Assembly (NCBI GenBank): GCA_050946775.1
Contig: JBMNVL010000001.1
Coordinates: 3,229 to 67,228 of the forward strand
From: Acutalibacteraceae bacterium
GTDB lineage: Bacteria > Bacillota > Clostridia > Oscillospirales > Acutalibacteraceae
DNA length: 64,000 nucleotides
Direction of reading: 5' to 3'
Position 1 is the stretch's first letter, and each line of letters opens with the position of its first letter. The notes beneath the pieces are model-generated. The model was not told the origin of the DNA and did not search any database. It worked only from the letters and a program-made list of their open reading frames with translations. Positions 535 to 61,416 of this stretch are shown here, one piece after another. A program made the translations under genes and the position numbers.

Positions 535-2463
535 TTGATCACCAAAATGAAACGCCTGACCGTCGTCGGGCCGCTGGACCGGCTGGACGACGCGATGGAA
601 ATATGCGGCGAAAGCGGCGTGTTTCATCCGGAGGACGCCCTGTCGTTTTATTCCGACACCAAGGACTTTTCCCCCATTCGGGAGGAAAACCCTTACGGCG
701 AGGCGCTCGGCCGGTTGAAGACCGCCATTCGCCGGATCGGCGGTACGCCCCGGCTGACCCGGCCGTCGCCCTTGCCGGCGGACCGCGTCGAGGAATACGT
801 CGCCGGGTTTGAGGCGGACGCCGACCGGGCGGCGGGAGAGACCGACCGGTGGGAAGAGAGGGCGCGTACCCTCGCGCAGGAGATCGAGCAGTTCGAGCAC
901 CTCAAGGGGCTCAACGTCGAGCTGAGCAGTCTGCTGGAATGCCAGACCATCAAGGTGCGGTTCGGCCGACTGCCGGCCGAGGGATACGACAAGCTGGCGC
1001 TTTACGACGACGATCCCTACGTGATGTTTTTCACCGCCGGGCGGGAAAAGCATTATTACTGGGGGATGTATTTTGCGCCGCTGGACTTCGTCGACGCGGT
1101 CGACCGGATCTTTTCGGGGCTGTATTTCGAGCGGGTGCGGCTGCCGGCCGAGACCGGCACGGTGGAGGAGATCCTCGCCCATCTGCGAAAGGAGCACGCC
1201 GACGCCGAGCAGGCGCTCAAAACGGCCCGCGCGGACGCCGCGGCGCTGTGGGAGAAGGAAAAGGACGCCTGCCTGGAGGCCTACACCGCCATGCACCGGC
1301 GGGAGTACCTCTTCGGTCTGCGGCGGTACGCGGCGAAATACCACGACGAGTTTATCGTCACCGGATGGGTGCCGGCCGCCGAGCAAAAAGCGCTGGCCGA
1401 CCGGTTTGCCCCCATCGACGGGGTCAAGGCGACTTTTGAGGCGGCTACCGTCGACGAGCGACATACCCCGCCGGTTAAGCTGCGCAACTGGCGGCTTTTC
1501 CGGCCGTTTGAGTTTTTGGTCGATATGTACGGGATGCCCCGTTACGGCGAGATCGACCCCACGCCCTTCGTGGCGATCACCTACGTGCTGCTGTTCGGCA
1601 TCATGTTCGGCGACGTGGGGCAGGGGCTGCTGGTGTCGCTGGTCGGCTGGCTGATGTGGCGGCTCAAAAAGCTGGACATCGGCCGGGTGCTGATCCCCTG
1701 CGGGATCTCGTCGGCGGTCTTCGGGCTGGTCTACGGGTCGGTGTTCGGATTCGAGCATTGGCTGGATCCGCTCTACAAGGCGGTGCTGGGACTGGACGAA
1801 AAGCCGGTCGAGGTGATGCGCTCGTCGATGACCACCACCATTTTGCTGGCGTCGGTGGGGATCGGCATCGTGCTGATCGTGGTGTCGATGGCGCTGGGGA
1901 TCTATTCCGGCATCCGGCAGAAAAACTGGGAAGCGGCCTTTTTCAGCCCCAGCGGACTGGCCGGAATGGTCTTCTACCTGGCGGTGATCGTCGGGTGCGT
2001 CCTCCAGTTCGTGCTGGGGGTGCCGGTGATGACAACGTGGTACGTCCTCGGGCTGATCGTGCTGCCGCTGATTGTGATGTTTTTGCGCCAGCCGCTGGGC
2101 AAGCTGGCGGCGCGGGATCCCGACTGGAAGCCGGACGGGTGGGGCGATTTCATCCTGCAAAACTTCTTTGAGCTGTTCGAGACGATGCTGTCCTATCTGT
2201 CCAACACCATGTCGTTTTTGCGGGTGGGCGCCTTCGTGCTGGTCCACGCCGGGATGATGATGGCCGTCTTCGCGCTGGCCGATCTGTTCGGGCCATTCGG
2301 GGCGACGGTGACGGTGGTGATCGGCAACGCGCTGGTGATGGTGATGGAGGCGACGCTGGTCGCCATTCAGGTGATGCGTCTGGAATTTTACGAGATGTTC
2401 AGCCGGTACTACAACGGCGACGGACAGATCTTCACGCCCTTGTCGGCTCAGGCCGATTCGTGA
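535..2463 (+). CDS. atpI: V/A-type ATP synthase subunit I (membrane a-subunit)
   Basis: 642 aa. A soluble coiled N-terminal half is followed by multiple hydrophobic helices. Starts at TTG 535 (RBS GGGAGAG) or ATG 547 (MKRLTVVGP...). Operon position fits. Confidence 0.9.
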   Translation: MITKMKRLTVVGPLDRLDDAMEICGESGVFHPEDALSFYSDTKDFSPIREENPYGEALGRLKTAIRRIGGTPRLTRPSPLPADRVEEYVAGFEADADRAAGETDRWEERARTLAQEIEQFEHLKGLNVELSSLLECQTIKVRFGRLPAEGYDKLALYDDDPYVMFFTAGREKHYYWGMYFAPLDFVDAVDRIFSGLYFERVRLPAETGTVEEILAHLRKEHADAEQALKTARADAAALWEKEKDACLEAYTAMHRREYLFGLRRYAAKYHDEFIVTGWVPAAEQKALADRFAPIDGVKATFEAATVDERHTPPVKLRNWRLFRPFEFLVDMYGMPRYGEIDPTPFVAITYVLLFGIMFGDVGQGLLVSLVGWLMWRLKKLDIGRVLIPCGISSAVFGLVYGSVFGFEHWLDPLYKAVLGLDEKPVEVMRSSMTTTILLASVGIGIVLIVVSMALGIYSGIRQKNWEAAFFSPSGLAGMVFYLAVIVGCVLQFVLGVPVMTTWYVLGLIVLPLIVMFLRQPLGKLAARDPDWKPDGWGDFILQNFFELFETMLSYLSNTMSFLRVGAFVLVHAGMMMAVFALADLFGPFGATVTVVIGNALVMVMEATLVAIQVMRLEFYEMFSRYYNGDGQIFTPLSAQADS

Positions 2464-21513: not shown

Positions 21514-22161
21514 TTACAGCTTGGAAAAGCCGTAACTGTTGACCAGCGCGTCCAGCGGCTTTCCCGCCTTGCACATGGGGCATTCGTGCGAGTTATAGCT
21601 GGCGTAATCGGCCAGATCCTTCGGGTTGAAGGCCGATTTTACCGGGAAACCCTCGCAATCGTCGGTCGTGGCAAAGATGGCGGCCACTCCCGCGACGATT
21701 CCGCCGTAATACTGGATCGCCTCGATGGCGCCTCTGGCCGTAAAGCCGGTGGTCACCGAAGCCGCCACCACCAAAACGTGCTTGCCCTCGATCATCGGCA
21801 GGGTGTTGTCCCGGAAAATCAACTGACTGCCGGAGGTGTGTTCCGGCGTCACGATATAAATGGTCTTGTGGGCGTTCAGATTGATGAAGGACCCTTCCGT
21901 CAGCGCCTCGGCCAGACAGGTGCCGATCACCTGCGTCCCGTCCAGACAAAGGATGGTGTCGACGATGGTGTTGGCGTTATAGTAGGAAACCAGCTCTTCG
22001 GCTATGGCTTTCGCCTCGGAAAGGCGGGATTTTTGGGACGTCACGTCGATATAATAATTGATATGGCTGTGGCTGGTGGCAAAATGCCCCTTGGCGACGC
22101 GCAAAAAGAGGTTGCTGCGCTTGGTCTGGATTTTATAGGATTGAACGGAAGGCATAACCAT
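21514..22161 (-). CDS. Phosphoribosyltransferase-family protein
   Basis: 215 aa. ..KHVLVVAASVTTGFTARGAIEAI.. is a PRPP-binding-loop-like motif. A C-terminal CPMC is present. RBS AAAGGAGAATGG. Confidence 0.55.
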   Translation of the reverse strand: MVMPSVQSYKIQTKRSNLFLRVAKGHFATSHSHINYYIDVTSQKSRLSEAKAIAEELVSYYNANTIVDTILCLDGTQVIGTCLAEALTEGSFINLNAHKTIYIVTPEHTSGSQLIFRDNTLPMIEGKHVLVVAASVTTGFTARGAIEAIQYYGGIVAGVAAIFATTDDCEGFPVKSAFNPKDLADYASYNSHECPMCKAGKPLDALVNSYGFSKL

Positions 22162-22228: not shown

Positions 22229-22261
22229 CACAAAACGGCGGCCAAAAGCCCAATGCCGCGC

Positions 22262-22947
22262 GGCGCAGGACGAATAGAGCTGAAAACACAAAAAGTGATA
22301 TATCTCGCTTGCGCTCGATGTGATATTTTTCGCTGGCGCGAAAAGTGATATTGCTCCCTTCGGTCGCAGTGATATTCTATTCGCCTTTTTAGCTGCGCGC
22401 AGCGCAATATCACTCGGCGCAAGCCGAATATAACGCAACGCAATATCACTCGCCGCAAGGCGAATAGAGTTGAAAAAAGCACGCTTTCGCGTGCTTTTTT
22501 CTGTGCTTACCGAACGAATATGCAAAACGGATATAATTAGTAAAAACTGTGTTTTTCGCCTGATTTCGGTTCTCTATGTAATACCCATCCTTAAACGAAT
22601 GAAACCACAAAAGTGAAATATCGAGCTTTGCTCGATGTGATATGTTTGCCTTGCGGCAAACGTGATATTTTTCGCTTGCGCGAAAAGTGATATTATATTC
22701 GTTCCTTCACTCGTCCGCAGGACGAATATCACTGCGAAGCAATATCACTCGACCGAAGGTCGAATATAACTCGTTCCGAAGGAACGAATATAGTTGAAAA
22801 AAACCTCGTCTTTCGACGAGGTTTTTTCTGTGATTATCGAACAAATATGCAAAATGGGAGAAATGGGTAAAAAAGTGTGTTTTGAACCCTGTTTCAGTTC
22901 TATGTATATTACCCAGACTTAAACGAACGAAATCACAAAACCAAACC
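22262..22947 (+). repeat. Tandemly duplicated (2 x ~330 bp plus a partial unit) array of short GC-stem hairpins flanked by GTGATAT / ATATCAC heptamers; each unit ends in an intrinsic terminator and an AT-rich tail
   Basis: Examples: gtgatatttttcgcTTGCgcgaaaagtgatat, gtgatatgtttgccTTGCggcaaacgtgatat, atatcactcgaccGAAGgtcgaatata. Unit ends are ..gaatagagttgAAAAAAGCACGCtttcGCGTGCTTTTTT and ..gaatatagttgAAAAAAACCTCGTCtttcGACGAGGTTTTTT. Confidence 0.8.
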
Positions 22948-23120
22948 AGTATCCTAAAAAGAAAGACTGCAGAAGTGTACTGGTCTTGCAAAAAGAAAAT
23001 CACCCTTCATCGAACACGAATGGTTTAGACTTGAAGAGGAACTCATTCACTAATTCTTGTACAAGCTCATTGAATATCGGCTGCATTTTTTTGGTATATG
23101 GCAGCACAAAAGGAACTGTA

Positions 23121-23387
23121 TCAATTGTCTTGGATGATTATTTTATAAACTTCACGGGCAATTCTTTCAAGGCAACCAAGATAATTACATTCTATTAATC
23201 CCTGAATATGTGGTTTAATTCCTGAAATAATTTCTTCACTGTACTCTTTAGAAAGACATGCTTCCGTTTGCACCTTCTCTACACCACCAAATGGCGTTTC
23301 ACAAACCTCTTCAGAACGAGCATAAATGTGACTAGTATCGTTAGGAGAATTGAACATGTACTTAATTATCAAAATGTTTTCCTCCAT
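23121..23387 (-). CDS. Hypothetical protein (island-borne)
   Basis: 88-aa ORF in AT-rich DNA, co-oriented with the KilA-N-like gene. May start at the internal Met (23357). Confidence 0.35.
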   Translation of the reverse strand: MEENILIIKYMFNSPNDTSHIYARSEEVCETPFGGVEKVQTEACLSKEYSEEIISGIKPHIQGLIECNYLGCLERIAREVYKIIIQDN

Positions 23388-23970
23388 CTAATAACATGAC
23401 TCTTTTAGAAATCAGCTTTATCAATTCATATCTACGCTCCGGGTATAGCCATGTAATGAAATCAATCGCAATCGGTTCGACGGCAAGGGTTCCGCCACCG
23501 GAACCCTGCTTCGATTCAATACCCCGAGCGTTTGTTTCGGTGATCCAAGCCTTCGCAGTCAAAGTGAAGGACGGCTCGTGTGTTTTCTCAATCAATGTCT
23601 TCGCCGCCTCATCGTTAAAATAATGAGGGTTATGCTCCTTTTCCCAAAGTCGCAGGAATTCCAAAGTATTCCGATCCCGCAGCCACGATTGAATCATATA
23701 TCCGGGGTTTGTTTCATTTTTGCGTTTGGCGAATTGAGTGAGCGAAACCATACGGCGCTCGTTGTTCTTTCGATATATTTGCAAATCAAACAAAAGCTTG
23801 GCGTATTCTTTATTCGTCGCTATGAGTTTTTCAATCTTTTCTTTTTCATCTTGAATCTGCAATTCTATTTCTGCTTGCGGTATTTTTATCTTTTTTAGAA
23901 CGCGACGAATGTTTTCTGAATATTCAGTCAAATACTCTTGAACAGCGTCACCGTAAAAATCAAAATCCAT
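23362..23970 (-). CDS. KilA-N-domain-like DNA-binding protein with an N-terminal coiled coil
   Basis: ..SWLRDRNTLEFLRLWEKEHNPHYF..FTLTAKAWITETNARGIESKQGSGGGTLAVEPIAIDFITWLYPE.. resembles KilA-N family proteins of phages and islands. Confidence 0.55.
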   Translation of the reverse strand: MDFDFYGDAVQEYLTEYSENIRRVLKKIKIPQAEIELQIQDEKEKIEKLIATNKEYAKLLFDLQIYRKNNERRMVSLTQFAKRKNETNPGYMIQSWLRDRNTLEFLRLWEKEHNPHYFNDEAAKTLIEKTHEPSFTLTAKAWITETNARGIESKQGSGGGTLAVEPIAIDFITWLYPERRYELIKLISKRVMLLDGGKHFDN

Positions 23971-24034
23971 ATCTACTTCCCCCTGTTATTTTAAATAATA
24001 TCACATTTTTTCAAAAAATAACAGGGGGTATTTG

Positions 24035-24325
24035 TTAACACGCCTTTTTGGATCTACGATCCTTTTCGATGCACATCTTGTAAAACATATCAAACGAAAC
24101 GATGTCAATATAGTTTTTACTGGATAACACATTATCAATATACTGCGCCGACCACCGATCTTTACCGGAAGGAGACTTAATCCCTCTGCTGAAAAGTTCA
24201 TCGGCTATTTTTCTCAAACTGCAACCGCCAAGATACATATCGTAAATCAATTTGATTGCCTTTGCCTCATCTTCTTTAATGCAAATTCTGTCACCGACAA
24301 CTTGATAACCATAAATAATTCTCAT
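24035..24325 (-). pseudogene. Fragment of a large serine recombinase (recombinase-domain segment only)
   Basis: ..GYQVVGDRICIKEDEAKAIKLIYDMYLGGCSLRKIADELFSRGIKSPSGKDRWSAQYIDNVLSSKNY.. matches the 'recombinase' domain. The N-terminal resolvase catalytic domain and the C-terminal zinc-ribbon region are absent. Confidence 0.6.
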
Positions 24326-24526
24326 CGTAAAACCATCCTTTCTATTCCACTTATTTTTATGTTTAGGTTTTGTAAAAAAGCAAACCTACAGTTTTTTAGG
24401 TTTGCAAGCGGTAAATATGTGTTTTTGAGCCTGTTTTGAGGCCAAAACGCGTCTTTTTGGTCAAAAATCGCCCGGAAAAAGCAACAAACCCACTCCATTT
24501 TATGTATGGAATGGGCTTGTCAATCA

Positions 24527-24601
24527 TGGAGGCGCCACCCAGATTTGAACTGGGGAATCAGGGTTTTGCAGACCCATGCCTTACCACTTGGCTATGGCGC
24601 C
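24527..24601 (-). tRNA. tRNA-Cys (GCA)
   Basis: Reverse complement GGCGCCATAGCCAAGTGGTAAGGCATGGGTCTGCAAAACCCTGATTCCCCAGTTCAAATCTGGGTGGCGCCTCCA. It folds as a cloverleaf with anticodon loop CTGCAAA and an encoded CCA. Confidence 0.95.
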
Positions 24602-24642
24602 ATATTGCAAAAGGCGCCAAACCCTTTGACGCCTTTTGTGTT

Positions 24643-24718
24643 TGGAGCGGCTTACGAGGCTCGAACTCGCTACCTCCACCTTGGCAAGGTGGCGCTCTAC
24701 CAGATGAGCTAAAGCCGC
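24643..24718 (-). tRNA. tRNA-Gly (GCC)
   Basis: Reverse complement GCGGCTTTAGCTCATCTGGTAGAGCGCCACCTTGCCAAGGTGGAGGTAGCGAGTTCGAGCCTCGTAAGCCGCTCCA. Anticodon loop TTGCCAA. Confidence 0.95.
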
Positions 24719-24723
24719 ATGCG

Positions 24724-24799
24724 TGGTGCCTCCGGACGGAATCGAACCATCGACACGGGGATTTTCAGTCCCCTGCTCTACCGACTGAGCTACAGAGGC
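24724..24799 (-). tRNA. tRNA-Phe (GAA)
   Basis: Reverse complement GCCTCTGTAGCTCAGTCGGTAGAGCAGGGGACTGAAAATCCCCGTGTCGATGGTTCGATTCCGTCCGGAGGCACCA. Anticodon loop CTGAAAA. Confidence 0.95.
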
Positions 24800-61204: not shown

Positions 61205-61416
61205 CGACGCATCCTGCCCTGTGCGTGGACCGCTGCCTTTTGACCCTACTACAGTTTTGATTCGGGAGCCCGGCTCCGGCGCCGGGATGCAGACCTCCCC
61301 GCTTTGGGCGGGACGAAGGGAGCGCGAACGCGCCGGGCGGCACCCACCTGTTACGTGTCGTAGCAGGTCACTTCGGCAGCATTACGGCAGGGCGGGATAT
61401 TGTTGTTAACAGAAAA

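Follow-up and report, generated by a model that had tools for sequence, protein, structure and literature searches.

What kind of element is formed by the dense row of short hairpins at positions 22244-22947 of a 64-kb stretch of Acutalibacteraceae DNA (contig JBMNVL010000001.1; the whole 64-kb stretch is called the window, and its coordinates are used throughout), and what could such an element do? An earlier reading of the letters alone, here called the original prediction, had described a tandemly duplicated, non-coding hairpin array that was selected for its structure, and had treated it as novel. We found that the region almost certainly consists of two tandem modules of Gut-1, a motif already held in Rfam (RF01706), of which the downstream one (unit B) is intact and the upstream one (unit A) is decaying, plus the remnant of a third. 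The novelty therefore did not hold, as an Rfam/Infernal-type check returned a known RNA family. Concerning the role, we see an even chance that the element would be a transcribed, strand-symmetric scaffold displaying its conserved heptamers to a protein, a reading that rests on sequence comparison and is weighed below against three others.

The array and its relation to Gut-1

The Rfam scan matched Gut-1 to the window four times, once in each half of each unit, with the two halves of a unit matched on opposite strands. The short-stem half of unit B (22721-22796, minus strand) exceeded the gathering score of 50 with its 51.3 bits, whereas that of unit A (22402-22472, minus strand) stayed below it with 45.0 bits; weak plus-strand matches fell on the long-stem halves of A (22293-22380, 34.3 bits) and B (22597-22673, 32.5 bits). 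Besides the score of unit B over the gathering cut-off, membership in Gut-1 is supported by the three hairpins with GUGAWAU linkers and their covariation, and by the origin of the related loci from gut or rumen metagenome-assembled genomes (MAGs), in keeping with the gut-associated, mostly uncultured hosts of the motif. The closest homologues of one window protein were also from MAGs named Clostridia or Ruminococcaceae. Gut-1 was described from gut Clostridia as a motif of unknown function by Weinberg et al. 2010 (PMC2864571), and their raw alignment has the same order as found here, namely a tRNA or terminator, GUGAUAU hairpins, a centre, and hairpins followed by AUAUCAC. Rfam types Gut-1 as a gene of the small RNA (sRNA) class, and its model covers the 77-nt half next to the terminator. 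Our search of the literature on Gut-1 found nothing past the 2010 description.

By direct reading, Tandem Repeats Finder, a repeat-family search and pairwise alignment, the following features were delimited in the array.

22244-22294, unstranded: remnant of a third unit, in which the closing part of a terminator-side half (…cgcaggacgaatagag) runs directly into the final bases of a tail (ctgaaaa joined to cacaaaaa)
22295-22375, unstranded: unit A long-stem half, with GTGATAT at 22295, 22320, 22345 and 22369 and three 17-18-nt palindromes
22376-22406, unstranded: unit A centre, with the X element TCTATTCGCCTT (22376-22387), a linker and the palindrome GCTGCGCGCAGC
22407-22472, minus strand: unit A short-stem half, with ATATCAC, ATATAAC and ATATCAC at 22407, 22428 and 22443, a degenerate ATAGAG, and short hairpins between the heptamers
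22473-22500, unstranded: unit A P0 hairpin, AAAAAAGCACGC-TTTC-GCGTGCTTTTTT, resembling a bidirectional intrinsic terminator (inverted repeat I11, 13 nt, 100% complementary)
22501-22612, plus strand: tail A, the conserved stretch of ~115 nt, with TATAAT at 22532-22537
22613-22693, unstranded: unit B long-stem half, with GTGAAAT at 22613, GTGATAT at 22637, 22662 and 22687, and three perfect 7-9-bp hairpins
22694-22725, unstranded: unit B centre, with the X element TATATTCGTTCCTTC (22694-22708) and then the hairpin tcgtcc-gca-ggacga
22726-22796, minus strand: unit B short-stem half, with ATATCAC at 22726 and 22742, ATATAAC at 22764 and a degenerate ATATAG
22797-22828, unstranded: unit B P0 hairpin, AAAAAAACCTCGTC-TTTC-GACGAGGTTTTTT, resembling a bidirectional terminator (inverted repeat I12)
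22829-22947, plus strand: tail B, a diverged copy of the tail with AGAAAT at the TATAAT position, no array behind it, and the low-GC island at its far end

The two tandem units are ~327 bp long, and pairwise alignment of A (22295-22612) with B (22613-22947) gave a mean column identity of 83%; the third-unit remnant (repeat families D2 and D5) shows 70-89% identity to the matching parts of both. Read on the plus strand, each unit begins with four GTGAWAT heptamers enclosing three 17-18-nt palindromes, passes through the centre into three or four shorter palindromes (8-17 nt in both units) that are each followed by ATATCAC or ATATAAC, and ends with a hairpin flanked by A and T runs (P0) and the ~115-nt stretch. 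The units are offset by one module, with modules 1-2 of A corresponding to modules 2-3 of B (family D1). The X element of each centre is perfectly complementary to a site in the short-stem half of its own unit, i.e. 22376-22387 to 22457-22468 in A (12 nt, inverted repeat I15) and 22694-22708 to 22778-22792 in B (15 nt, 100%, inverted repeat I3), and the latter helix is present in the RNA minimum-free-energy fold of a shorter unit B stretch on both strands. The short-stem half of A ends in GTTG (CAAC on the minus strand), and that of B has four short hairpins with GAA or GCA loops on the plus strand. The P0 stems of A and B differ at every position with the pairing kept, and the fold z-scores against dinucleotide shuffles were −8.9 on the plus and −9.8 on the minus strand, well outside what chance would give. 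Unit A looks degraded because two of its palindromes, the first (22302-22319) and the third (22352-22368), are imperfect, and most of the conserved stretch in front of its array has been lost.

Much of the original prediction stood these comparisons. Reading, repeat finding and alignment agreed on a tandemly duplicated, non-coding array; the bidirectional terminators placed at the unit ends are the P0 hairpins at 22473-22500 and 22797-22828; and the overlapping open reading frames (ORFs), which had been dismissed as artefacts, are such, none of five ORFs across the array having a Pfam match, so that ORFs called across arrays of this kind are to be treated as artefacts in genome annotation. A CRISPR array had been excluded and was rejected here as well, as no more than 7 nt are constant, palindromes fill the variable stretches, and the flanking ORFs scanned contain no cas-like domain. 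Three claims were upheld in part. Perfect hairpins, said to make up the units, are found in the long-stem half of B, but hairpins 1 and 3 of A are imperfect; each unit had been seen as one long imperfect palindrome capable of forming a cruciform, which is right for the inverted heptamers and for one 11-15-bp helix but not for the stems, which differ between the two halves; and the tail of ~110 nt, described as following the terminator of each unit, is indeed conserved between the units (76% identical) but is better read as an element lying 5′ of the next array on the plus strand.

The full element across related loci

A pattern scan over one genome per species returned at least 120 loci, hosted mostly by gut or rumen MAGs of Oscillospiraceae, Acutalibacteraceae, Christensenellaceae and Clostridia, among which 44 elements carry three or four forward and then three or four reverse heptamers (‘++++---’). 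They share a layout of ~175 nt in which P0 is followed by the short-stem half (corresponding to the Rfam motif), then by a long-range helix of 11 bp and lastly by the long-stem half in inverted orientation; the distance from CAAC to the last heptamer is 150-191 nt. Sixteen related loci scored 52-80 bits with the Gut-1 model, and in canonical loci the match begins at CAAC or CAGT directly after P0, a P0-homologous GC-rich hairpin being found at the same position in all related loci. On the minus strand the module therefore reads P0, CAAC, a first hairpin and three GUGAWAU-hairpin repeats, a segment of 11-15 nt whose pairing partner is the beginning of this same half, and the inverted long-stem half of three or four AUWUCAC-hairpin units, with the ~115-nt stretch beyond it in the window lineage only.

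The long-range helix is formed by a 10-12-nt segment right after the fourth long-stem heptamer, which is perfectly complementary to the 3′ arm of the hairpin on the terminator side and to the nucleotides that follow this arm. The mean exact complement was 10.2 nt (versus 4.4 nt in shuffled sequences), with at least eight sequence variants, and in a 37-element alignment the 11-bp helix was 98.3% paired with double-sided changes in 9 of its 11 pairs. Because the first hairpin and the long-range helix share the 3′ arm and are mutually exclusive, the terminator-side half has two alternative folds. A ‘rod’ model, in which the heptamers of the two halves would pair with each other, was tried and rejected, as RNA folding gave a rod in some loci only.

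In the three long-stem hairpins, 92.7% of the alignment cells of the 37 elements were paired versus 53% after shuffling, a level that none of 500 shuffles reached; double-sided changes occurred in 18 of 18 pairs, and 236 double-sided changes compare with 6 one-sided ones of the G-C to G-U kind. The compensatory nature of the stem changes, which the original prediction had read from two copies, is thus seen across the alignment, and at the level of sequence selection on structure is confirmed. Summed over all stems of the 44 elements, 867 pairs were Watson-Crick, 12 G-T and 16 A-C (stems 92-95% Watson-Crick), and because G-U pairs are almost absent, the stems are equally good on both strands.

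The loops of the same hairpins are biased as well. Read on the ATWTCAC strand, 110 of 210 are triloops, of which 70 have the form GNA, and 43 of the 66 tetraloops are GNNA (22 of them GNRA); the closing pair is C:G in 171 of the 210 hairpins. In DNA, C(GNA)G is the classic mark of an exceptionally stable mini-hairpin. The strand with the favoured loops flips between the two halves, so the heptamer with its hairpin is an oriented unit that is present in both orientations.

These biases can be counted for a role as DNA. On that account the hairpins would extrude from single-stranded DNA (e.g. on the lagging-strand template, during transfer or in recombination) or as cruciforms, a structure-specific enzyme or recombinase would read hairpin plus heptamer, and the array would be a recombination or integration site behind tRNA genes, at which mobile elements and cassettes collect. 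The missing bias between G-T and A-C in the stems of either strand, the GNA and GNNA loops and the C:G closing pairs all favour it, and the flip of the favoured-loop strand is expected if both DNA strands are used. Stems differ between copies of the same genome, however, which means that the copies are not recent products of transposition, and clustering of the flanking proteins revealed no recombinase, HUH nuclease or integrase consistently linked to the arrays. Taking in the genomic context given below, we hold a DNA role to be a serious rival, though unlikely on balance.

Among the loci examined, each MAG carries one to four, with stems that differ between the copies. An identity as repetitive extragenic palindromic (REP) sequence, bacterial interspersed mosaic element (BIME) or miniature inverted-repeat transposable element (MITE) was rejected on this low number of loci, on the differing stems, and on the flanks, in which no transposase recurs; the end of an insertion sequence or MITE was likewise rejected for the array. 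Several side observations concern the spread of the arrays. The MAG SGB_6406 has at least four array loci (L084, L092, L094 and L102) with different stems, and the 2.7-kb contig L092 has half-arrays at both ends flanking a thiamine-salvage operon, suggesting that assemblies break at these repeats. Arrays with the linkers ATGAAAT/ATTTCAT, GTGATGW/ACATCAC or ATGATGC were seen in L249 (3247-3470), L262 (1270-1480), L281/L283 and L004 (3400-3950), and arrays of one half followed by a terminator in L055 and L063. The locus L097 contains a second strong Gut-1 match (1755-1831, minus strand, 74 bits) ~1.7 kb from its tRNA-adjoining array.

Genomic setting: tRNA genes, PF05635 genes and the tail

A co-oriented tRNA gene was found in 19 loci, in every case on the terminator side and 39-85 nt from the last strict heptamer; 12 amino-acid identities are represented, and P0 fills the 36-46 nt that separate the tRNA from the first position of the Gut-1 match. 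Loci without a tRNA gene have instead a co-directional protein gene ending 72-129 nt upstream, and their P0 often has no T run, with the first terminator found beyond the array. The far side of the array is occupied by a terminator, or by a promoter and gene, and where far-side terminators are one-directional, five have the Rfam (minus-strand) orientation versus one the opposite.

Such a setting brings up a passive function in RNA stability or insulation, like that of REP/BIME, in which stable hairpins at the 3′ ends of highly expressed units would block exonucleases and read-through from both sides with no protein partner. The location downstream of tRNA operons or protein-coding genes and at sites where genes converge, the constant coupling to a strong and often bidirectional P0 terminator, a symmetric design that works from both directions, and the very stable folding (z about −9) would all suit it. 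It gives no account, though, of the strict conservation of the heptamer linkers, the long-range helix with its competing hairpin, the loop bias, or the linkage to PF05635 genes and the match between protein subgroup and heptamer described below, and one to few copies per genome are unlike REP. We rate it distinctly improbable.

In the window, the surroundings of the array are as follows.

21514-22155, minus strand: phosphoribosyltransferase-like gene, the array lying between its start and the low-GC island
22950-24520, minus strand: low-GC island, ~1.6 kb between the array and tRNA-Cys, with 39-46% GC versus ~63% in the rest of the window
24527-24799, minus strand: genes of tRNA-Cys, tRNA-Gly and tRNA-Phe, a type of cluster that usually adjoins the element

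The phosphoribosyltransferase-like gene has a promoter-like TTGACT-17-TATAAT (22228 to 22200, minus strand), and its orthologues (77-87% identity) have no array upstream, so the array belongs to the tRNA side. The same Cys-Gly-Phe cluster occurs in L097, where the array is 57 nt away. The island in the window encodes an 88-aa ORF, a KilA-N protein (23362-23970, Pfam 1.5e-8) and a fragment of a serine recombinase (24035-24325, Recombinase 8e-12), which at 96 aa amounts to the ‘Recombinase’ domain only of a large serine recombinase. The island has the look of a remnant, left by an element that had integrated where the tRNA meets P0, and insertions of this kind, at the CAG/P0 junction, were also found in L242 (two serine recombinases) and L254 (phage-like genes). 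For the species itself, the strain comparison offered one other contig only, broken inside unit A. Elsewhere in the window, a 6S RNA (Rfam RF00013, 55.1 bits) at 61208-61402 on the plus strand is unrelated to the array.

Mobile elements exactly at CAG/P0 in L242, L254 and the window island are a further point for the DNA role, as are the tandem units with cargo between them in eight places (the window, L004, L031, L065, L074, L085, L118 and L249) and a nearly identical cassette (97.8%) behind both tRNA-Pro and tRNA-Arg. The integrations may, however, have no other cause than that tRNA 3′ ends commonly serve as attachment sites, and the orientation of the array is fixed to the upstream gene even if that gene is protein-coding, which suggests a connection with transcription. 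No empty site turned up either: for the tRNA-Arg locus, the metagenomes of the Joint Genome Institute (JGI) gave no match, which makes this search uninformative. A plasmid search for the array had no match; one phage-labelled record matched, an unverified one from human faeces with the same layout of tRNA, array and four-helix-bundle gene, and the few true matches in IMG/VR contigs adjoin tRNA genes.

Clustering of the flanking ORFs revealed a sole recurrent neighbour, a protein of ~115 aa encoded directly beyond the long-stem half and belonging to PF05635/TIGR02436, the family of four-helix-bundle or 23S-rRNA intervening-sequence proteins. Its gene was present in 11 loci, always adjoining the array and pointing away from it, and by tblastn nowhere else in 241 loci; in L078 it starts 15 nt past the array. 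The protein subgroups partition perfectly with the heptamer, L037-like proteins going with GTGAAAT, L009-like ones with GTGATAT and that of L262 with ATGAAAT. In two loci (L243, 2229-3253; L249, 2229-3253) P0, array, promoter, the four-helix-bundle gene and a gene for a 110-aa MazG-like protein form a cassette of ~1.0-1.09 kb, and these are the 97.8% identical copies behind tRNA-Pro and tRNA-Arg. The right boundary of the cassette is exactly …CTTTCGCA, where the next P0 begins in L249, and at the tRNA-Arg locus a second array with ATGAAAT heptamers directly follows the cassette.

PF05635 genes are accompanied by repeats in other settings too. On plasmids of Monoglobus, Treponema, Nostoc, Euhalothece, Planktothrix, Chondrinema and Gloeocapsa (L261, L263-L268) they sit between the genes of operons, among them type I restriction-modification, DISARM/BREX, a resistance-nodulation-division (RND) efflux system and a DUF1156-HEPN pair, and inverted arrays of tandem repeats of 7-8 nt enclose each gene, e.g. 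(AATTCGT)n upstream and (ACGAATT)n downstream. The flanks share 7-91 complementary 8-mers, versus ~0.7 by chance in our own estimate, and our literature search found no description of such repeat-bracketed plasmid PF05635 genes. Simple arrays of the GTGAAAG/GTGAAAT type with no hairpin spacers adjoin PF05635 genes in Treponema (L263, 860-1190 and 1549-1640) and in an Oscillospiraceae MAG (L015, 972-1090); L088 (1-95) has a similar simple array, with no PF05635 gene found there. Literature on PF05635 itself was confined, in our search, to one note on genes inside cas loci and a Coxiella study of intervening sequences.

From this family comes the third alternative, i.e. that the array is the decaying non-coding shell of a selfish four-helix-bundle cassette, like a 23S-rRNA intervening sequence, and that solitary arrays are its relics, now devoid of function. 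The inverted 7-8-nt repeat arrays around the plasmid PF05635 genes of seven distant bacteria would agree with it, and so would the degraded look of unit A and tail B; 23S-rRNA intervening sequences are regarded as selfish elements, with a terminal inverted-repeat stem that is cut by RNase III for their excision (PMC4990558, the Coxiella study). Solitary arrays are nevertheless the majority, and their near-perfect pairing and covariation across Clostridia families require ongoing selection; moreover, both halves lie upstream of the four-helix-bundle gene and do not flank it. We regard the relic account as very improbable.

The tail bears on the direction in which a scaffold would be transcribed. 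A degenerate tail pattern found eight metagenome contigs; the ~115 nt are >90% conserved in L278-L280 and L282, in unrelated contexts, and occur also in L281/L283, L277 and L284, all within this lineage. Where an array is present, the tail is directly before its long-stem half on the plus strand, and in nearly all contigs it directly follows a T run or a terminator-like hairpin. Its box is TATAAT or TAAAAT when an array follows and is mutated in two array-less copies (tail B and L277), which is weak evidence because these two copies have diverged overall. Read on the plus strand, terminator, promoter and leader, array and P0 terminator may constitute an sRNA gene of ~285 nt; on the minus strand, the tail may be a 3′ extension ending at a terminator, and in L282 the terminator at the tail end works only in the minus direction. 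Across lineages, no −10 box was enriched at a fixed position before the long-stem half. Pairing between the tail and the X element was considered and rejected, as it is not conserved in the other tail-carrying loci.

Possible function and relation to known systems

The scheme that follows starts from the family, architecture, covariation, tRNA position and PF05635 linkage observed above; what it adds to them, namely transcription and its strand, the binding of a protein and a role in the cell, is predicted. Transcription of the minus strand would come from the upstream tRNA or gene unit and continue into the array, as read-through or as a 3′ trailer; alternatively, the plus strand would be transcribed from the TATAAT stretch (22532-22537) to the P0 terminator. 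Either transcript would fold into a row of short, rigid Watson-Crick hairpins that hold the heptamers single-stranded and regularly spaced, thereby offering a multivalent binding platform, and P0 would act as a bidirectional terminator when it lies behind a tRNA gene. Because both strands fold identically in the absence of G-U pairs, the element could work in either reading direction. The evidence on direction conflicts: for the minus strand speak the place downstream of co-directional genes, the loci whose sole terminators lie beyond the array, the one-directional far-side terminators and L078, and for the plus strand, in the window lineage, speak the conserved tail with its −10 box and P0 as the terminator.

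The best candidate for the binder would be the PF05635 protein, which in the window would act in trans; naming this four-helix-bundle protein as the partner is tentative and somewhat doubtful, and it relies on gene linkage. In a wider form, Gut-1 arrays would be the cis-acting nucleic-acid partner of PF05635 proteins, whose genes would travel with inverted 7-8-nt repeat arrays across phyla; either strand of the arrays would be able to fold, whether in the form of single-stranded DNA or of RNA transcribed in both directions, small cassettes would settle at the CCA/G boundary behind tRNAs, and solitary arrays would be served in trans. We regard this wider form as possible but rather unlikely.

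A number of observations weigh against the transcribed scaffold. The near absence of G-U pairs is atypical for an RNA family, and on the ATWTCAC strand half of the loops are triloops of the C(GNA)G form, with only half of the GNNA tetraloops being GNRA. As the favoured-loop strand flips, one RNA strand cannot carry the favoured loops in both halves. Heptamer pairing between the halves is not conserved, because one lineage has GTTATAT versus ATATCAC (L020). As for the partner, tblastn with two four-helix-bundle proteins found no PF05635 gene in the 64-kb window, and the match between subgroup and heptamer could be simple co-inheritance of linked DNA. Both directions meet a difficulty: the plus-strand reading has only a weak −35 box and, across lineages, no −10 box at a fixed position, and the minus-strand reading puts the P0 terminator before the RNA at tRNA-adjoining loci. 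The simplest reading that fits all observations is that of an element built to fold alike on either strand; such an element could be RNA transcribed from one strand or from both, and just as well single-stranded DNA, and the same fold on both strands would explain the ban on G-U pairs.

For Gut-1, an orphan motif since 2010, the analysis provides a testable object, i.e. a two-half module of ~210-330 nt with a switch-like helix, a tRNA position, an avoidance of G-U pairs and a candidate protein partner. The PF05635 link, if true, would connect Gut-1 arrays with the 23S-rRNA intervening-sequence proteins and with heptamer-repeat arrays in cyanobacteria and spirochaetes.

Compared with known systems, the arrays and REP/BIME are alike in being clusters of palindromes flanked by a short conserved sequence, which are found in either orientation where transcription units have their 3′ ends and which pair with no strand bias; REP, however, form hundreds of near-identical copies mobilized by REP-associated tyrosine transposases (RAYTs), whereas Gut-1 arrays have one to few copies, differing stems and no linked RAYT-like gene. 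CsrB/RsmZ share the many short hairpins with a repeated motif, suggesting multivalent protein binding, but there the motif is a GGA in the loops, G-U pairs are used and the design is not strand-symmetric, whereas in Gut-1 it forms the linker between hairpins, half of its occurrences being reverse complements. The RNA of a type III toxin-antitoxin system (ToxI-like) was rejected, as the modules are inverted between the halves and no toxin-like gene is adjacent. Integron attC sites likewise keep their structure while the sequence varies, are consistent with folding as single-stranded DNA and stand in tandem units with cargo; in contrast to one imperfect hairpin with extrahelical bases, R and L boxes and intI, Gut-1 has about eight perfect hairpins and no linked integrase, and an integron cassette array was rejected because no tyrosine recombinase is next to the arrays and each element has about eight hairpins.

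With the PF05635 cassettes and 23S-rRNA intervening sequences the arrays have in common the protein family, the association with stable-RNA operons, the inverted repeat arrays and a cassette-like occurrence in varied contexts. Unlike intervening sequences, both Gut-1 halves are upstream of the gene, and the hairpins between the heptamers mean that no continuous stem for RNase III can form; such an identity was rejected for the window, which has no PF05635 gene, and for the relatives, where the gene is beside the array and not inside it. The closest likeness is to Gut-1 as modelled by Rfam, with three short hairpins, GUGAWAU linkers, a place directly after a terminator and gut-associated Clostridia as hosts. 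To these the full element adds a conserved boundary hairpin (P0), a long-range helix of 11 bp and a second half, inverted and long-stemmed, which is itself Gut-1-like when read on the opposite strand. The kind of element itself is known; what is new is its complete two-sided layout, its fixed setting behind tRNA genes, its GNA-looped stems made of Watson-Crick pairs only, the conserved leader of the window lineage and the link to PF05635.

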